A stretch of 10,378 nucleotides of DNA from Nanobdellati archaeon (GCA_018304505.1 JAGVWA010000012.1:1-10378), one strand, 5' to 3'. Counted from the first letter of the stretch, positions 1 through 10,360 are shown. Program-made: numbers and translations. The notes: generated by a model not told the origin, from the letters alone.

Positions 1-103
1 CGCCGCAATATACAAATACGAAGACCACGCCGGAGTACCCCCAGACGAAAAAAGAAACAACACCAAACGCGACGAAACAGAACTAGACATAATACTCGTA
101 TAA
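1..103 (+). CDS. 3' end of an upstream CDS (partial, unknown product)
   Basis: Frame 2 is open from base 2 to TAA at 101-103: AAIYKYEDHAGVPPDEKRNNTKRDETELDIILV*. Not in the ORF track because it has no start in the window. Confidence 0.6.
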   Translation, partial: AAIYKYEDHAGVPPDEKRNNTKRDETELDIILV

Positions 104-140
104 GCAATAACTTTTTATACCTCCCATGCGCAAATAATAT

Positions 141-299
141 ATGTGGACACGGCGCAGCGACGAGTCTGAGTTTGAGGGACTACTAAAGGGCTCAATTAAA
201 CAGCCCATGTTAAAAGGAAAAACAGGGATAACTCCAACGCAAATTCCCCCCATGCCGCCAACGCCAACATCGAAAGAGCCCCCGACAAAACCAGTATGA
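141..299 (+). CDS. small Pro-rich hypothetical protein (52 aa)
   Basis: Read manually from ATG 141 to TGA 297-299: MWTRRSDESEFEGLLKGSIKQPMLKGKTGITPTQIPPMPPTPTSKEPPTKPV. A TATA-like TTTTTATA at about 112-119 sits at leaderless spacing. Confidence 0.5.
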   Translation: MWTRRSDESEFEGLLKGSIKQPMLKGKTGITPTQIPPMPPTPTSKEPPTKPV

Positions 300-303
300 T
301 GAA

Positions 304-319
304 GAAAAACCTTTATAAA
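304..319 (+). promoter_or_regulatory. BRE-TATA archaeal promoter candidate
   Basis: GAAAAACCTTTATAAA matches a purine-rich BRE followed by a TTTATAAA box; it may drive the 415..660 ORF. Confidence 0.45.
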
Positions 320-414
320 TGGAAACTAATTATAACTAGAATATACAATCGATACACCAAACACAATCGAACTAACCAAAACCAACAAAACACGACAGGA
401 GTTGAGCGCACAAC

Positions 415-660
415 ATGTGGGACACAAACAGCTCGCGAGAAGCACTTAATACTGAAACTAACGAACCAAAACCAGTTGCACAAAACAACAACATCGGCAG
501 GCTTATTCCATTGAGGTATAGACACATCGTACAAAACCTTGATCTTCACGGACTAAGTATTGGTGCAAGCAATAGCATAGAGGTTGAGGGAATCAAACAG
601 CCAGAACCACCAACGCCAAATGCCCAGTTGCCGCAGTGGTTCCCCCCCAGAAAACAATAA
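415..660 (+). CDS. hypothetical protein with Pro-rich C-terminus (81 aa)
   Basis: ORF track; ATG start; co-oriented with neighbours; no recognisable domain. Confidence 0.45.
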   Translation: MWDTNSSREALNTETNEPKPVAQNNNIGRLIPLRYRHIVQNLDLHGLSIGASNSIEVEGIKQPEPPTPNAQLPQWFPPRKQ

Positions 661-679
661 CGAAAACAATAACCATACT

Positions 680-702
680 TTATCAAAATCGCTAGCTTCA
701 AC
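680..702. repeat. displaced partial copy of the leuS 3' end (att-like direct repeat, copy 3)
   Basis: TTATCAAAATCGCTAGCTTCAAC is 23/23 identical to 1097-1119 and 21/23 identical to leuS 1627-1649. Confidence 0.9.
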
Positions 703-714
703 AACAGCTCTTTT

Positions 715-735
715 TATTGCATAACCATTATAAAC
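715..735 (+). promoter_or_regulatory. TATA promoter block of hicB cassette 2
   Basis: TATTGCATAACCATTATAAAC is 20/21 identical to 1124-1144; TTATAAA starts 30 bp before ATG 758. Confidence 0.75.
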
Positions 736-757
736 CTCTACTTCGAAAGTAAGACAC

Positions 758-1039
758 ATGGCTAAAAAATTAAACATAATAGAATTACCTGTATTTACCT
801 ACAAAGACGGCAAGTACTACGTATCAGAAGTTCCATTCATACATGTTGCTAGCCAAGGCAAAACAATAGATGAATCGATAGCCAACGTAACGGAAGCAGT
901 AGAGCTCTACTTCGAGGGAGAAGACGTAGAGGAGATACTAAAAGAAAAAGTGCCATTAAAAAGCAACGTGTACACAAGCACCATAGCATTTGACAAAAAA
1001 ACAAAACACTTAGTCGCCACTAGTTCTATAACGAGCTGA
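758..1039 (+). CDS. hicB: HicB-family antitoxin (now orphan)
   Basis: Motif KDGKYYVSEVPFIHVASQGKTIDESIANVTEAVELYFE fits the HicB-like pattern (..P.....SQG.T..EA..N..EA.ELY). Confidence 0.85.
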   Translation: MAKKLNIIELPVFTYKDGKYYVSEVPFIHVASQGKTIDESIANVTEAVELYFEGEDVEEILKEKVPLKSNVYTSTIAFDKKTKHLVATSSITS

Positions 1040-1045
1040 GCCAGA

Positions 1046-1095
1046 ATGACAAAAATACCGGTGCTCTGGAAGAATTTATTGACCTTCTCAACTAG
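1046..1095 (+). pseudogene. internally deleted HicA toxin remnant
   Basis: ATG 1046 reads MTKIPVL (HicA-like N-terminus, cf. MTRLTPI at 1385). It is fused out of frame to EEFIDLLN* at 1069-1095 (HicA-like C-terminus, cf. EEFLKLL of the intact copy). It sits directly after hicB. Confidence 0.75.
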
Positions 1096-1123
1096 CTTAT
1101 CAAAATCGCTAGCTTCAACGGCA
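1091..1123. repeat. displaced copy of the leuS 3' end (att-like direct repeat, copy 2)
   Basis: ACTAGCTTATCAAAATCGCTAGCTTCAACGGCA versus 1621-1653 ACTAGCTTATCAAAATCGCGGGCTTCAACGGCA: 31/33 identical, including the leuS stop codon. Confidence 0.95.
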
Positions 1124-1144
1124 TATTACATAACCATTATAAAC
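1124..1144 (+). promoter_or_regulatory. TATA promoter block of hicBA cassette 1
   Basis: TATTACATAACCATTATAAAC; TTATAAA starts 30 bp before ATG 1167, the same spacing as in cassette 2. Confidence 0.75.
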
Positions 1145-1166
1145 TCCCACCCCGTAACTAAAATAC

Positions 1167-1388
1167 ATGACTAAAAAATACGAATTTACCGTTCTGATTG
1201 AAAAAGACGAAGACGGCTGGCTAGTCGGAAAAGTGCCGGATCTACAAGGCTGTGCGACGCAAGCAAAAACCATGAATGAATTGATGAAACGCGTAAGAGA
1301 AGCCATCCTAGCTTGTCTTGAAAGCGAAAAACAAGAGCCCCAGCACCTAGAATTAATCGGCGTGCAAAAATTAGAGATAAACGCATGA
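1167..1388 (+). CDS. hicB: HicB-family antitoxin
   Basis: FTVLIEKDEDGWLVGKVPDLQGCATQAKTMNELMKRVREAILACLE is a classical short HicB (UPF0150) signature. Confidence 0.92.
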   Translation: MTKKYEFTVLIEKDEDGWLVGKVPDLQGCATQAKTMNELMKRVREAILACLESEKQEPQHLELIGVQKLEINA

Positions 1389-1618
1389 CCCGCTTAACCC
1401 CTATTTCTGGAAAGAAACTCTCTAAAATTGTAGAACAGCTTGGTTTCAAACTAGTTCATCAAAAGGGTAGTCACAAACGTTACGTTCATGACGATGGAAG
1501 AAAAACCACAATCCCCACACATGGAAACGAAGAAATCGGCATCGGCTTATTGATTGAAATCCTCGGACAAATCAAGATACCAAGAGAAGAGTTTTTAAAA
1601 CTACTAAAGAAAAGGTAA
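1385..1618 (+). CDS. hicA: HicA-family mRNA interferase toxin
   Basis: ISGKKLSKIVEQLGFKLVHQKGSH...DGRKTTIPTHGNEEIGIGLLIEILGQ has the catalytic GSH motif; ATGA overlap with hicB. Confidence 0.93.
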   Translation: MTRLTPISGKKLSKIVEQLGFKLVHQKGSHKRYVHDDGRKTTIPTHGNEEIGIGLLIEILGQIKIPREEFLKLLKKR

Positions 1619-1621
1619 CTA

Positions 1622-4462
1622 CTAGCTTATCAAAATCGCGGGCTTCAACGGCACCGCGTTGCCCGCTTTTGCTTCTTTTGACCCAGAAGCTTTCATCACT
1701 TCAACCTCAGCGCCAAAGCGCTGCTTGAAGAAATCGCTAGCCTCCTTGATGGCATCAAACTCCTGCTGCTCAGAAGGCACGTCATCAAGCAGCTCTCCAG
1801 CGTGCTTTGATAAGTAACTCACATAAGTCACTGCCTGCTTTCCATGGGCTTTGACATCCTCTTGCTGCATCGCGTTCTTCAAGATGTTCTGTGGATGCTT
1901 CATCTGCGCAGCCATCCTATAAACAGTGCGTTTCCATTCCGGCGCAATGAAAATAGTTATGTTCGCCAGTTTGCCTAAGTTGGCGAGCTTCTGCACGTTT
2001 TCAATGTCACCCTGTAAACCAAGGAGCATCTGCTCATTCGCCTCGGCTGTTCCATCAATTTTTGTCTCGTCAGCCACTGGGTACGGTTGCTGTACAACAA
2101 AGCCCTTGTTGCCAAGCTGCTCCCATAGCTCCTCGCACGTGTGCGGAATTACGGGGTTTATCAACTTAACAAGCGTCTCGGCAGCCCACTTTGCCACCTC
2201 CTTGTTGTCGCCATTCCTGGTTTTGTACCACGCCAGGACCTTGAGGCCTTCGAACATGGCCTGATCAATCGCCTTCCGCAGCTCAAGCGAATTGAAGCTG
2301 ATTGTGGTGCTCTTTATTATTGTGTTTATCCTGGACTCGAGCCACGCGTCTATATGTTTTTTCTTGCTGCCTTTGACTTGCTTCATTTCCATTACCGCAT
2401 TGTAGAAGCGCTCTGCTTGGCTTTTGTAATTCATCACAGTATCATGAGCCCATTCAATGTCGCTAAACGGGCTGCCGACGTGCGCGTAAAACAAACGCAT
2501 TCCGTCAACGCTATACTCATCAGCAGGCGGAATCGCATTACTAAAGACGCCGCCTTTGCTCTTGCTTATTTTTTCTCCGCCGCCTTCTGTAACCCAGTAG
2601 TTGACGAAGATGCCTTGTGGCCAGTCGTTCTCAGGAAGAATGGCCGCGTGGTTCATGATGTAAACCGGAAAGTGCACTGTCTGGTGTTCCTTGCCGCCAA
2701 GGTTGATATCGACAGGATACCAGTACTCAAATTCCTTTTTGACTTGTTTCCAAGTTTCGTTTTTTGGTTTTCCTTTACCTAAAAAAACGTAGTCGAAGAA
2801 TTCCTCTGTCAAGTCATCGAGCTGCAGCTTGCCTGCGTTGAAGTACCTTGACACAACGTAAAAAGCAGGATACAGCGTGGAATCACTGATGGCCTCGATT
2901 GTCCAGCCCTTGTCGAATGGAAATGGGGTACCAACCCAATTGCCTCTGCGCGTAGCGCTTCTATATCCGAACCAGTCCAACACGCCTGGCAGGTTATCCT
3001 TGTAGCTTTGGGGGTAAATGTTCATTCTCTTGGCATGCTCCTTCGACTTTTCTTTCACTTCCGGGTTTTTGTAGTCGATCACCCACTGGTCGTTGATTTT
3101 CTTTACAACGACGCGTTCGCCACACCTGCAAACAACTGGCTCTGAAAAGTCCACAAACACGTCTGCTTTGCCTGCGCTGATTAGTTCTTGTTTTATCTTG
3201 TCTTTGGCTTCCATTACGCTCATGCCAGCGTATTTCCCAGAGTGCTTCGTCATGGTACCTGTGTGGAACCCTGCCTTATATACCTCTTTTTTCGCTTCTT
3301 CGAGTTTCGGGTCGTCCTGATTCTTTATTTTGAGGTCTCGGCATATTTTCACTGCAGCCATGTCGCCATAGCCTTTCACTTCCATAATTGGGATTACCTC
3401 TATTGATTTTATTTTCTCGTAGTCCAGGCCGTATTTTTCGCAATCGACCTTGGACTTCTGCAAGTCCACGAGACCCATGTAATCGATAGGCGCATCGCTT
3501 GGCACCGACGTCACTATGCCAGAGCCAATGCCAGGGTCACAGAATTTACTTGGCAGGATAATGATTTCCCGATCGACCCCTGGCGCCTTAGCGTACTGTC
3601 CAATCAAGTTCCCGCCTTTGATTTTCTGTATCACCTCAAGGTTGTCTTTCTGATACCTCAGTTTGGACAGAGCTTCTTGGCTTAGTATCCATTCTTCCCC
3701 ATCGACCTTGGCGAGCGCATACTCGACGTTTGGATCGATCCACAAGTTGGTTTGCCCGTACACGGTTTCTGGTCTGAGGGTGGCGGCTATAATATACCGG
3801 TTTGGTTTTTCAAATTCGAACTTCAGCAAGGTGTACTCGTTCTGTTGCGCATTACCTCCTTTGCTCAAGTCGGTTTCGCTTGGGTCTACAGCTACAGAGC
3901 CGTCCTTTGGGCAGTAGGCCTCGTACGACTCGATTTGTTTCAACATTCCCAAGTTTTTGAGTTTCCTGAACTGCCACTCGATGAACTTCTGGTACTGAGG
4001 GTATTGCGTGCAAACGATGGCGTCAAAGTCCGCCAATAAACCGAAGCGCTTGAATGTCTTCTGGTAATTTTCTGTGAAGTATTTCAAGACAACCATGATG
4101 TCCTTTTCGCCATCCTTCTTGAGTTGCTCTATCTGCTTTTCATTGAGGCCGTCGATCTTGAGGTTGTTGATTATGTCTTCCCGGCCTTCTTTTAGTTTGC
4201 GGAGCCATGTTGGCGCCACGTTTCCAGAGGCGTGAGTGCCTACTGGAAAAAAGATTGAGTGGCCTTGCATCCTTTTGAGGCGGCAGATCATGTCGCTGTA
4301 AGTAAACCCCCGCATGTGCCCGACGTGCTGATGACCAGAGACGCCAGGGTAAGCAAAGTGCAAGTAGAATTTTTTCTCCCCCGTTGGCCCTGACTTGAGT
4401 TCTGGGCTAGCATACCATCTTTCCTGCCATTTCTTCTCGATTTGTTTGTGATCAAATTTCAT
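1622..4462 (-). CDS. leuS: leucine--tRNA ligase, archaeal/eukaryotic type
   Basis: 946 aa. HIGH motif is HVGH and KMSKS is KISKS. CP1 editing motifs ATLRPET and GSGIVTSVPSDAP are present, as are EFEYWYPVD and the C-terminal PLKPAI. An SD-like GGAGTGA lies upstream (about 4470-4476, minus strand). Confidence 0.97.
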   Translation of the reverse strand: MKFDHKQIEKKWQERWYASPELKSGPTGEKKFYLHFAYPGVSGHQHVGHMRGFTYSDMICRLKRMQGHSIFFPVGTHASGNVAPTWLRKLKEGREDIINNLKIDGLNEKQIEQLKKDGEKDIMVVLKYFTENYQKTFKRFGLLADFDAIVCTQYPQYQKFIEWQFRKLKNLGMLKQIESYEAYCPKDGSVAVDPSETDLSKGGNAQQNEYTLLKFEFEKPNRYIIAATLRPETVYGQTNLWIDPNVEYALAKVDGEEWILSQEALSKLRYQKDNLEVIQKIKGGNLIGQYAKAPGVDREIIILPSKFCDPGIGSGIVTSVPSDAPIDYMGLVDLQKSKVDCEKYGLDYEKIKSIEVIPIMEVKGYGDMAAVKICRDLKIKNQDDPKLEEAKKEVYKAGFHTGTMTKHSGKYAGMSVMEAKDKIKQELISAGKADVFVDFSEPVVCRCGERVVVKKINDQWVIDYKNPEVKEKSKEHAKRMNIYPQSYKDNLPGVLDWFGYRSATRRGNWVGTPFPFDKGWTIEAISDSTLYPAFYVVSRYFNAGKLQLDDLTEEFFDYVFLGKGKPKNETWKQVKKEFEYWYPVDINLGGKEHQTVHFPVYIMNHAAILPENDWPQGIFVNYWVTEGGGEKISKSKGGVFSNAIPPADEYSVDGMRLFYAHVGSPFSDIEWAHDTVMNYKSQAERFYNAVMEMKQVKGSKKKHIDAWLESRINTIIKSTTISFNSLELRKAIDQAMFEGLKVLAWYKTRNGDNKEVAKWAAETLVKLINPVIPHTCEELWEQLGNKGFVVQQPYPVADETKIDGTAEANEQMLLGLQGDIENVQKLANLGKLANITIFIAPEWKRTVYRMAAQMKHPQNILKNAMQQEDVKAHGKQAVTYVSYLSKHAGELLDDVPSEQQEFDAIKEASDFFKQRFGAEVEVMKASGSKEAKAGNAVPLKPAILIS

Positions 4463-4580
4463 GAAAAAATCACTCCAGGTTATCCTTTCCTTGTTTTATT
4501 GACTTTTCTTGAGTATTTATAGCTTTTTAACTCACGTCAGTTTAAACTCGCTCAGGTGGCAAAATCGTTAAATATACTAG

Positions 4581-4850
4581 ATGCTCTTAAATACATTGAT
4601 GACTATGGCGGATGATACATCTATTGACGCTGGCAAGGCTAGCAGCATAGCAAAACAATACTTGATCGACACGTACGGTAATCTTGGCCAGTTTACATTT
4701 AAAATACACTCGATCAAAAGAAATTCAGCTGAACACATCTGGATTGTTGAGTGCGAATCTTATGCGACCCCTAAGGATGAAAAACCAACAGCGTACACCA
4801 TAAAAGTAAACATCAAAACAGGTGAGATCGTGTCAATCTCATCTATCTAA
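4581..4850 (+). CDS. small hypothetical protein, PepSY-like pattern (true start may be 4599 or 4605)
   Basis: Helix (A..IAKQYL) followed by beta strands W.V...Y.IKVNIKTGEIVS, reminiscent of the PepSY fold; divergent from leuS. Confidence 0.7.
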   Translation: MLLNTLMTMADDTSIDAGKASSIAKQYLIDTYGNLGQFTFKIHSIKRNSAEHIWIVECESYATPKDEKPTAYTIKVNIKTGEIVSISSI

Positions 4851-9860: not shown

Positions 9861-10109
9861 ATGGTATCTTATACAAGCATACAAATCTTGCCTGAAACAA
9901 GAGAAGAATTAAGTCATTTGAAATCAAGCCCTCGGGAGACTTATGACGAGTTAATCAAAAAATTGATTGAATTGATTCCAGAAGGAGACGAAGAAGGCAC
10001 TTACAAAGATGAATTTAAAGTTGGCCTTTTGAACGCAAAACTCGATGCCATAAAAGGAAGAACCTATTCGCTTTCAGACGTAAAAAAATCCCTAGGACTG
10101 AATAAATGA
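9861..10109 (+). CDS. putative antitoxin, RHH/CopG-like N-terminus
   Basis: TSIQILPETREELSHLKSSPRETYDELIKKLIE and C-terminal GRTYSLSDVKKSLGL are typical of archaeal RelE partners; ATGA overlap with the toxin. Confidence 0.85.
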   Translation: MVSYTSIQILPETREELSHLKSSPRETYDELIKKLIELIPEGDEEGTYKDEFKVGLLNAKLDAIKGRTYSLSDVKKSLGLNK

Positions 10110-10360
10110 CCTGGAAGATTGAGTTTACAAAAGAAGCACTTAGAGACATCTCAAAACTTGAAACAAAGATTCTCGACAGGATACTAGACAAACTTGAACA
10201 GACAAGAGAGAACCCACATCATTATTTTCAACGCTTGGTGGGCCACGATGATTTCAAATTCAGGGTGGGCGATTATAGGATACTAGTGCTCTTATTGCAT
10301 GACGAGAAAATAATAATACAAAAAGTAGGACACCGAAAAAACGTTTACAAACGTCTCTAA
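10106..10360 (+). CDS. relE: RelE/ParE-family toxin
   Basis: WKIEFTKEALRDISKL...RLVG...FRVGDYRIL...VGHRKNVY is a canonical RelE signature. Confidence 0.93.
   Translation: MTWKIEFTKEALRDISKLETKILDRILDKLEQTRENPHHYFQRLVGHDDFKFRVGDYRILVLLLHDEKIIIQKVGHRKNVYKRL

Follow-up and report, generated by a model that had tools for sequence, protein, structure and literature searches.

Chromosomal toxin-antitoxin (TA) pairs are spoken of as mobile two-gene modules; their movement is mostly inferred from their patchy distribution, and the vehicle that carries them is rarely seen. Elements resident at the end of a protein-coding gene include the ICESt1/ICESt3 family, whose members are integrative and conjugative elements (ICEs), found in Streptococcus thermophilus at the 3' end of fda. 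Accretion in tandem has been documented for integrative elements and for cis-mobilizable elements (CIMEs) (PMC5704250), and a survey of archaeal integrated elements reports 14 of 68 in the 3'-distal parts of protein-coding genes, together with tRNA targets and arrays that arise by re-use of a site (PMC6563490). Repeats that overlap a tRNA gene beside an integrase are described as a common archaeal arrangement (PMC4158269), and integron arrays are reported from Archaea including the DPANN group, mostly with no integrase on the contig and often carrying TA pairs, to which 10.5% of the annotated proteins of archaeal cassettes belong (PMC9668308). Here we analyse a stretch of 10,378 nt, called the window throughout, that forms the first bases of contig C2 in a metagenome-assembled genome (MAG) of a Nanobdellati archaeon (GCA_018304505.1, JAGVWA010000012.1:1-10378; 917 kb in 21 contigs, 92.8% complete), and in which two compact hicB-hicA units lie between direct copies of the 3' end of leuS, the gene for an archaeal-type leucyl-tRNA synthetase (LeuRS). 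We consider it probable, if well short of certain, that serial site-directed insertion at the last ~33 nt of leuS built up the locus, stacking in tandem two and possibly three minimal cassettes that had been acquired separately.

The closest described kinds are accreted, integrase-less elements flanked by attachment (att) sites, namely CIMEs, and integron cassette arrays, and the leuS array qualifies as neither. Like CIMEs, the leuS units stand between direct copies of a protein gene's 3' end and contain no gene for integration or transfer, and the new arrival would sit at the copy that completes the gene with the older one displaced outward. CIMEs, however, span kilobases, come visibly from decayed ICEs or integrative and mobilizable elements (IMEs) and share their att sites with a known integrase-bearing element, whereas the leuS units are archaeal, measure 0.4-0.5 kb and consist of a promoter and a TA pair only, with no cognate integrase or parent element found. 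With integrons and clusters of attC sites lacking integrases (CALINs) the locus has in common short cassettes of variable cargo at a homogeneous site, TA genes among that cargo, the integrase-free condition common in such arrays, and a newest cassette that would be the proximal one. It differs in having no IntI, in using the coding end of an essential gene and not attI as its site, and in carrying a promoter in every cassette; moreover, the boundary units (664-772 and 1080-1180) fold no better than shuffled sequences on either strand (z -0.29 to +0.83) and contain no imperfect palindrome of the attC type. Since the leuS repeat has no hairpin and IntI is missing, the integron-style array of which an earlier note on this DNA had spoken is an analogy and not a case of membership. 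Archaeal tyrosine-integrase elements likewise have repeats that overlap the 3' end of the target, restore the gene end from the element and form arrays by site re-use, but their gene content runs from several to dozens and includes an integrase, whole or split, whereas none is present in the leuS units. No description of TA-only cassettes bounded by copies of a gene's 3' end was found in the literature searched.

The leuS termini of the window belong to one repeat family, whose three members are direct copies of 33 nt at spacings of 417 and 530 nt (Table 1), and the three copies seen in the earlier note are thus confirmed with somewhat revised extents; relative to copy 2, copy 1 is 82% and copy 3, the live gene end, 94% identical. 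Within them lies a 23-nt core, TTATCAAAATCGC followed by TA or GG and then by GCTTCAAC, which at up to 3 mismatches matches the window three times (0, 0 and 2 mismatches) and the whole 917-kb genome at the same three places only, with no match in any of 200 dinucleotide shuffles of the window and 0 for the reversed control. Each copy is a hybrid: the core is followed by a promoter block in copies 1 and 2 and by the leuS body in copy 3, and it is preceded by a foreign left flank in copy 1, by the end of hicA1 in copy 2 and by the end of hicA2 in copy 3. Their composition supports the interpretation that the three act like distal, internal and proximal hybrid att sites. The displaced copies 1 and 2 read CGCTAGC and the live end CGCGGGC, as would be expected if TA arrives with the cassettes and the crossover falls to its left, whereas serial duplication of the live leuS end would require an identical two-base change twice. 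A repeat search of the window found no inverted repeats at the unit ends, and across all the loci described below the repeats range from 11 to 122 nt, unlike the fixed-length target-site duplications of transposons.

The similarity between the two units does not end with the tail, as the earlier note had drawn it, but continues through the promoter and 13 nt into hicB, so that the repeated unit given there was too short. Units 1 and 2 share a block of 91-105 nt comprising tail, promoter and these first 13 nt (680-770 against 1097-1179, 77% over 91 nt, E 2e-16 by self-BLAST and alignment), in which the 23-nt core is identical and the promoter blocks (715-770 against 1124-1179) are 80% identical. 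At 13 nt inside hicB the similarity stops abruptly, nothing beyond it aligns, and the HicB1 and HicB2 proteins match at 37% over 43 aa only. Unrelated cargo separated by a site that is homogeneous within the array, a feature of integron and CALIN cassette arrays, is what the leuS locus presents. A non-coding boundary better conserved than its coding cargo is the opposite of what duplication followed by drift would leave, and the contrast speaks for a serial insertion of distinct cassettes, each with a target end of its own, and against plain tandem duplication.

In the more elaborate form of duplication, which has no site-specific step, unequal crossing-over or a tandem event doubled or tripled a unit that reached from the promoter to 33 nt inside leuS, and ordinary homologous recombination, with the conserved tail and promoter as anchors, later exchanged the interiors for divergent hicBA alleles of other strains. 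The layout speaks for it, given that n repetitions of promoter, hicB, hicA and tail with no tail upstream of the leftmost unit are just what tandem duplication puts out, and the interval 104-673 is about one unit long; that interval, however, retains no similarity to either unit. Such a history would also need no recombinase, in keeping with the failure to find one in the MAG (below). It would, on the other hand, call for two processes at every locus and leaves the TA of both displaced tails, set against the GG of the live end, to be accounted for, and we regard it as unlikely.

Both intervals hold a promoter, hicB and hicA, whole or as a remnant, and nothing else, as had been noted before. 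The family-assigned open reading frames (ORFs) in 674-1620 are hicB1, hicB2 and hicA2 only, and the remaining ones are short overlapping frames, among which the one scanned against Pfam (553-777) gave no match. Unit 2 may be classed as a type II HicAB module by its toxin domain and the adjacent HicB-fold antitoxin of the same operon; it resembles such modules in pairing a HicA domain with a HicB-like partner in an overlapping two-gene operon (the ORFs overlap by 4 nt) and differs in that the antitoxin comes first and that HicB2 has only 73 aa, with no DNA-binding domain detected by Pfam. The packing is tight: promoter block 2 begins directly after the tail, 43 nt lead from tail 2 to the start of hicB2, 3 nt separate the hicA2 stop from that of leuS, and both hicBA operons converge on leuS. 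The spacing in promoter block 1 suggests a leaderless mRNA. In unit 1 the hicB1 ORF (758-1039) has no Pfam match at 0.01, with PF15919 just below threshold at 0.011, and matches a Pfam-validated HicB of the same genome (contig C4) by BLASTP at E 3e-10 with 42% identity over 60 aa.

What follows hicB1 is probably a remnant of hicA1, judging by its position and its likeness to HicA N-termini; it is read in two frames (MTKIPVL, then LEEFIDLLN and a stop), and our own HicA hidden Markov model (HMM) does not detect it, the stretch being too short for any statistic. About 17 of ~75 codons are left; compared with unit 2 the gene lacks about 170 nt, and the loss reaches precisely to the tail boundary. 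The gradient from an intact proximal to a decayed distal unit described in the earlier note thus holds, hicA2 being whole and hicA1 a stub. That note had also pointed out that the TAG ending the remnant (1093-1095) overlaps the displaced leuS stop (CTA, 1092-1094), which is so, and had taken this as a sign that hicA1 once abutted leuS; this second part falls away, because a remnant of only the N-terminal ~17 of ~75 codons means that the TAG is not the stop of hicA1 itself and proves no such abutment.

The array itself is physically real. We compared it with k=31 contigs from four other runs (X3, X4, X5 and X6, with X1 and X2, flagged as possible sources, left aside; the X3 and X4 tables are identical and are counted once) and with a public metagenome contig of 2751 nt (L034), which equals window 1-1673 at 99.76% and extends 1080 nt beyond the window start. 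One X3/X4 contig spans 70-1399 with 0 differences, X5 contributes contigs covering 213-794 and 777-1149 and X6 contigs covering 1043-1209 and 1411-1691, and all three tail copies are bridged; stretches uncovered in X5 and X6 are without significance. An assembler might have chained two strain variants of the region downstream of leuS through the shared repeat, and the start of the window at a contig end, the 99-nt overlaps of MAG contigs at graph branches and the microdiversity at the locus would all suit such an error. The longest exact stretches common to the copies, however, are ~23-24 nt and so shorter than k=31, and single k=31 contigs as well as the independent 2751-nt contig cross all junctions in the same order. 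We conclude that the array is not an assembly artefact, an origin that we hold to be highly improbable and that the earlier note had named as one way in which its reading could fail.

These comparisons also uncover a second population (L034 and X3/X4), in which a 2-nt deletion at 1516 shifts the frame of HicA2 after residue 45 and substitutions stand at 1538 and 1582, hicB2 being untouched.

The format recurs elsewhere in the genome. A genome-wide scan for local direct repeats, combined with a HicA search, puts 4 of the 6 hicA loci within intervals bounded by direct repeats of at least 22 nt, although such intervals make up 6.9% of the genome (rough post-hoc binomial 3e-4), and a fifth hicA starts 12 nt past the second copy of a 104-nt repeat into which the final 65 nt of a gene fall. 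Contig C3 has four copies (11-18 nt) of the 3' end of an intron-bearing tRNA-Ala(UGC) gene, beginning at the last base of the tRNA, that delimit three two-gene units, the middle one with hicB and a hicA that has an in-frame TAG and the other two of RHH/RelE- and ParE-type appearance at sub-threshold scores only. On contig C15 the 23S rRNA gene ends at ~25992, and 16 nt later begins a series of sites A, B and C with a core opening with GTCGCAGCGC, whose left and right arms are combined as expected for proximal, internal and distal hybrid sites. The units here carry a PIN protein (25.1 bits, below cut-off) with a ParD/RHH antitoxin (36 bits) and a PaREP1/HEPN-like protein (below cut-off) with a nucleotidyltransferase (38.8 bits). 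The tRNA-Ala and 23S-flank arrays also fit the picture of archaeal integrated elements. Unrelated families side by side in one array, as in PIN with RHH beside HEPN-like with nucleotidyltransferase, or RelE-like beside HicAB, cannot be produced by duplication; the varied repeat lengths across loci, for their part, would suit the accidental end points of a duplication. At least 8 units of the genome have the bare format, which relatives show as well.

Several further observations concern these loci. The tRNA-Ala(UGC) gene (G000:C3:124134-124358; L042, L044) has a predicted 143-nt intron and is missed by ARAGORN without its intron option; a 69-nt stretch with two acceptor-stem mismatches scores 28.1 bits with the Rfam tRNA model, just below the threshold of 29. 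On contig C5 (G000:C5:34647-35471; L048) a ParE-family, parDE-like pair is enclosed by a 122-nt segment and its duplicate (119 identical); the second copy falls inside a PIN-domain gene whose Pfam match covers the N-terminal half only, as if the pair had been inserted into a toxin gene and had left a long duplication. Contig C9 has two single-gene units (20069-21561 and 86843-88199; L051, L052) that encode AAA_14 ATPases, one with DUF4143, and are each enclosed by near-perfect direct repeats, in one case of 50 nt with 48 identical positions and in the other of 61 nt with all 61, and these look like further repeat-bounded cassettes with cargo other than TA genes. The palindrome ACTGGTTTAAACCAGT, which lies beside the repeats of three other hicBA loci, was considered as a recombination site and rejected, being part of a general promoter module and absent from the leuS units. 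In it the palindrome GGTTTAAACC, frequently in the form ACTGGTTTAAACCAGT, is followed after 4 or 14 nt by GTTGCAAAATC and a TATA box; the module occurs at ~30-46 genome sites upstream of unrelated genes, including window 4539-4580 before an ORF at 4581-4850, and is probably a lineage-specific upstream element of strong promoters.

In 40 related genomes 28 hicA loci were examined, of which 4 lie between repeats of 25-54 nt at a spacing of 470-570 nt (two in G019 and one each in G020 and G024), compared with 2 of 29 control loci. The G024 repeat is the end of a 178-aa gene, whose proximal copy encodes DNIFAFPYVTKSV and a stop and whose displaced copy encodes NNIFAFPYVAKSI and a stop; the two ends differ by three synonymous changes, three conservative ones and one from stop to stop, with frame and stop kept in both. 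This pattern would be the mark of two functional alleles, one of them an imported surrogate 3' end, and a displaced tail that resembles a functional allele and not a drifting duplicate is another difficulty for duplication with exchange. Two loci of G019 (L061, L079) are a separate observation: they hold homologous hicBA units (73% mean column identity in a DNA alignment) at different places with unrelated flanking repeats, and at L079 the last two hicA codons and the stop lie inside the displaced copy of the target gene's end. G021, a member of another family, has a hicB and a frameshifted hicA of the unit 2 subfamily ~1.2 kb behind leuS (L083, G021:C63:4074-7172), parted from it by a 400-aa gene and with no tail repeat. 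In 31 genomes of the class the array has no nucleotide relative but one 31-nt match (E 9e-4).

The mechanism we propose takes as its cassette a copy of the leuS 3' end, an adjoining archaeal promoter block and a hicB-hicA operon that converges on leuS. Most likely each would have entered as a cassette circle, by reciprocal recombination between its own copy and the chromosomal leuS end, with the crossover perhaps inside the 13 nt common to all copies (TTATCAAAATCGC). Each such event would leave the leuS end complete, partly supplied by the cassette, and push the earlier hybrid copy outward, so that the newest cassette would stand next to leuS. After fixation decay would strike the toxin first, as the hicA1 stub beside an orphan hicB1 and the hicA2 already frameshifted in the second population suggest. 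The enzyme might be an integrase that a virus or plasmid outside the sampling supplies in trans; alternatively, the host's own recombination might act on short homology, for example in a Campbell-type entry of a circle with a piece of the target.

A number of results weigh against such serial insertion, foremost those on enzymes and donors. The 92.8%-complete MAG has no tyrosine recombinase (PF00589, 0 matches at E <=0.01; control positive in 14/14 genomes) and no serine recombinase (PF00239; control positive in 12/14 genomes). PF00589, which is present in 16 of the 41 genomes searched, is also absent from G019 (96% complete) and G020 (92%), both with repeat-flanked hicBA units. Scans of viral contigs found no leuS tail, no core of the 23S site and no relative of HicA2, and one scan each of a metagenome and a genome collection returned the same array (L034) and one chance match only. 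The latter, a match to the 23-nt core in an Arenimonas MAG (L035), was set aside as chance, as it is intergenic with no leuS or hicAB genes nearby and ~0.3 chance matches are expected by our own estimate. No integrase-bearing element sharing the att site turned up in the MAG, the viral contigs or the single scan of each large collection, where absence is not proof. At none of the tails do the contigs of the four runs or L034 contain a joint, a loose end, an empty site or an alternative cassette, although contigs are blind to rare forms. A loose end at position 103 in three runs was rejected as an empty site, being the start of contig C14 of the same MAG.

Other difficulties lie in the arrays themselves. 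The exact truncation of hicA1 at the tail boundary is left unexplained by the cassette model, decay in the tRNA array does not rise with distance (the broken unit is the middle one), and none of 29 leuS loci in relatives has a duplicated tail, with a script that recovers copy 2 in the window locus as its positive control. That result speaks against leuS as a general hot spot; the genome stands alone in its family among species representatives, and with LeuRS C-termini all at most 42% identical to its own, these 29 loci offer neither a close comparison nor a true empty site. The variety within one genome, with at least 6 different targets and repeats of 11-122 nt, is, besides, a poor fit to a single classical integrase and leaves room for host recombination on short homology. 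The serial insertion of recombinase-less mini-cassettes set out in the earlier note finds support in large part as history, through the independent cargo, the shared boundary and the parallel arrays, and lacks any sign of present mobility or of an enzyme. The checks listed there gave no excision junction, circle, empty site or different cassette in the contigs of the four runs or L034, no trans-acting tyrosine or serine recombinase detected in the MAG, and no duplicated tail among the leuS loci of the 29 distant relatives.

A further rival takes the units for remnants of two ordinary and much larger viruses or plasmids integrated at a leuS att site, whittled down by deletion to an att-proximal hicBA module held in place by addiction, as on the classical route to a CIME. 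TA modules are reported as common cargo of integrated elements (PMC6563490). Yet the units have no spare DNA, so that each deletion must have stopped exactly at both borders; the same bare format recurs in the other units of this genome and its relatives; and no integrase fragment occurs at any unit border. Without residual element genes or spare DNA the units are compatible with never having been larger, and we rate this descent as less probable than duplication with exchange.

Table 1. Features of the array at the leuS end and of its flanks, with positions counted in the window
Feature	Position	Strand	Basis
3' end of upstream ORF, at least 393 aa, coiled-coil, no family; stop 101-103	1..103	+	ORF continues in contig L034
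A-rich spacer, no recognisable gene	104..673		AT skew 0.43-0.46
Tail copy 1, distal; leuS stop lost; TA signature	674..706	+	repeat search
Promoter block 1; TATA-like TTATAAA ~27 nt before ATG	707..757	+	conserved with block 2
hicB1, 93-aa HicB-like antitoxin, now orphan	758..1039	+	BLASTP, sub-threshold PF15919
Probable hicA1 remnant, ~17 N-terminal codons, frameshift, cut at tail boundary	1046..1095	+	position and resemblance
Tail copy 2, internal; leuS frame and stop kept (MPLKLAILIS, stop); TA signature	1091..1123	+	repeat search
Promoter block 2	1124..1166	+	conserved with block 1
hicB2, 73-aa HicB-like antitoxin	1167..1388	+	PF15919, 1.8e-7
hicA2, 77-aa HicA toxin, intact in window	1385..1618	+	PF07927, 1.3e-16, 60.9 bits (cut-off 27)
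Tail copy 3, live leuS 3' end (VPLKPAILIS, stop); GG signature	1621..1653	-	repeat search, ORF
leuS, archaeal-type leucyl-tRNA synthetase, 946 aa, target gene	1622..4462	-	Pfam matches
Hairpin GCGGGC...GCCCGC, A and T tracts on both sides, within last 15 codons of leuS	1638..1680		folding

The archaeal affiliation of the genome is marked by the archaeal-type LeuRS, many intron-bearing tRNA genes, an archaeal 23S rRNA, class III signal peptides, Nre and aEF-1beta. The leuS ORF, whose stop TAG is the complement of 1622-1624, matches tRNA-synt_1 at 1.7e-22 and Anticodon_1 at 1.7e-20 and the Leu editing domain weakly. The hairpin in its last codons folds at -15.5 kcal/mol (z -3.5 on the + strand, 0/200 shuffles as good; z -2.3 on the - strand), the GG of the live leuS end pairs with the leuS body within it, and it might terminate both of the converging transcripts, that of leuS and that of hicBA. 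The spacer at 104-673 might, speculatively, be an older and fully decayed unit; its ORFs have no Pfam matches, our own HMMs give no HicA or HicB signal, and self-BLAST at word size 7 reveals no further tail copy there. The upstream ORF of at least 393 aa was considered as a hidden recombinase and rejected, its Pfam matches being sub-threshold and of coiled-coil type only. Contigs C2 and C14 of the MAG open with an identical 99 nt and split at base 100, the common part being the end of this ORF, the remainder of which is missing from the MAG, and the C14-type continuation is found beside the C2-type one in runs X3, X4 and X5; either the ORF exists in two copies or its downstream DNA differs between two strains. 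At the right end of the window (9861-10360) stands a two-gene TA-like pair, a DUF7557 protein (4.9e-6) followed by a ParE-family toxin (6.2e-10), for which the genome-wide repeat scan lists no flanking repeats, no closer look at the flanks having been made.

The leuS array may show the vehicle of a TA pair in its barest form, units of 0.4-0.5 kb (longer at other loci) made of a surrogate end of an essential gene, a promoter and the pair itself, and within a single 0.9-Mb genome, where neither a tyrosine nor a serine recombinase was detected, such units are stacked at essential genes of three kinds. Even as fossils they would document that TA modules were gained repeatedly at particular sites and decayed with the toxin first. 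Should they be mobile, they would define natural landing sites, and a cassette format of minimal size, for a lineage not yet genetically manipulable, and would extend array building beyond integrons. We put forward tentatively, as a rather doubtful but not idle proposal, that small (DPANN-type) archaea harbour an undescribed class of minimal integrative cassettes, each no more than an attachment core taken from the 3' end of an essential gene (leuS, tRNA-Ala or the 23S rRNA flank), a promoter and one TA pair, whose sub-kb circles insert, excise and pile into arrays by a recombination that is neither that of a resident tyrosine recombinase nor that of a resident serine recombinase. Such a class would correspond, in Archaea and without dependence on an integrase, to integron cassettes, and would account for the spread of TA genes in genomes almost free of conventional mobile-element machinery.

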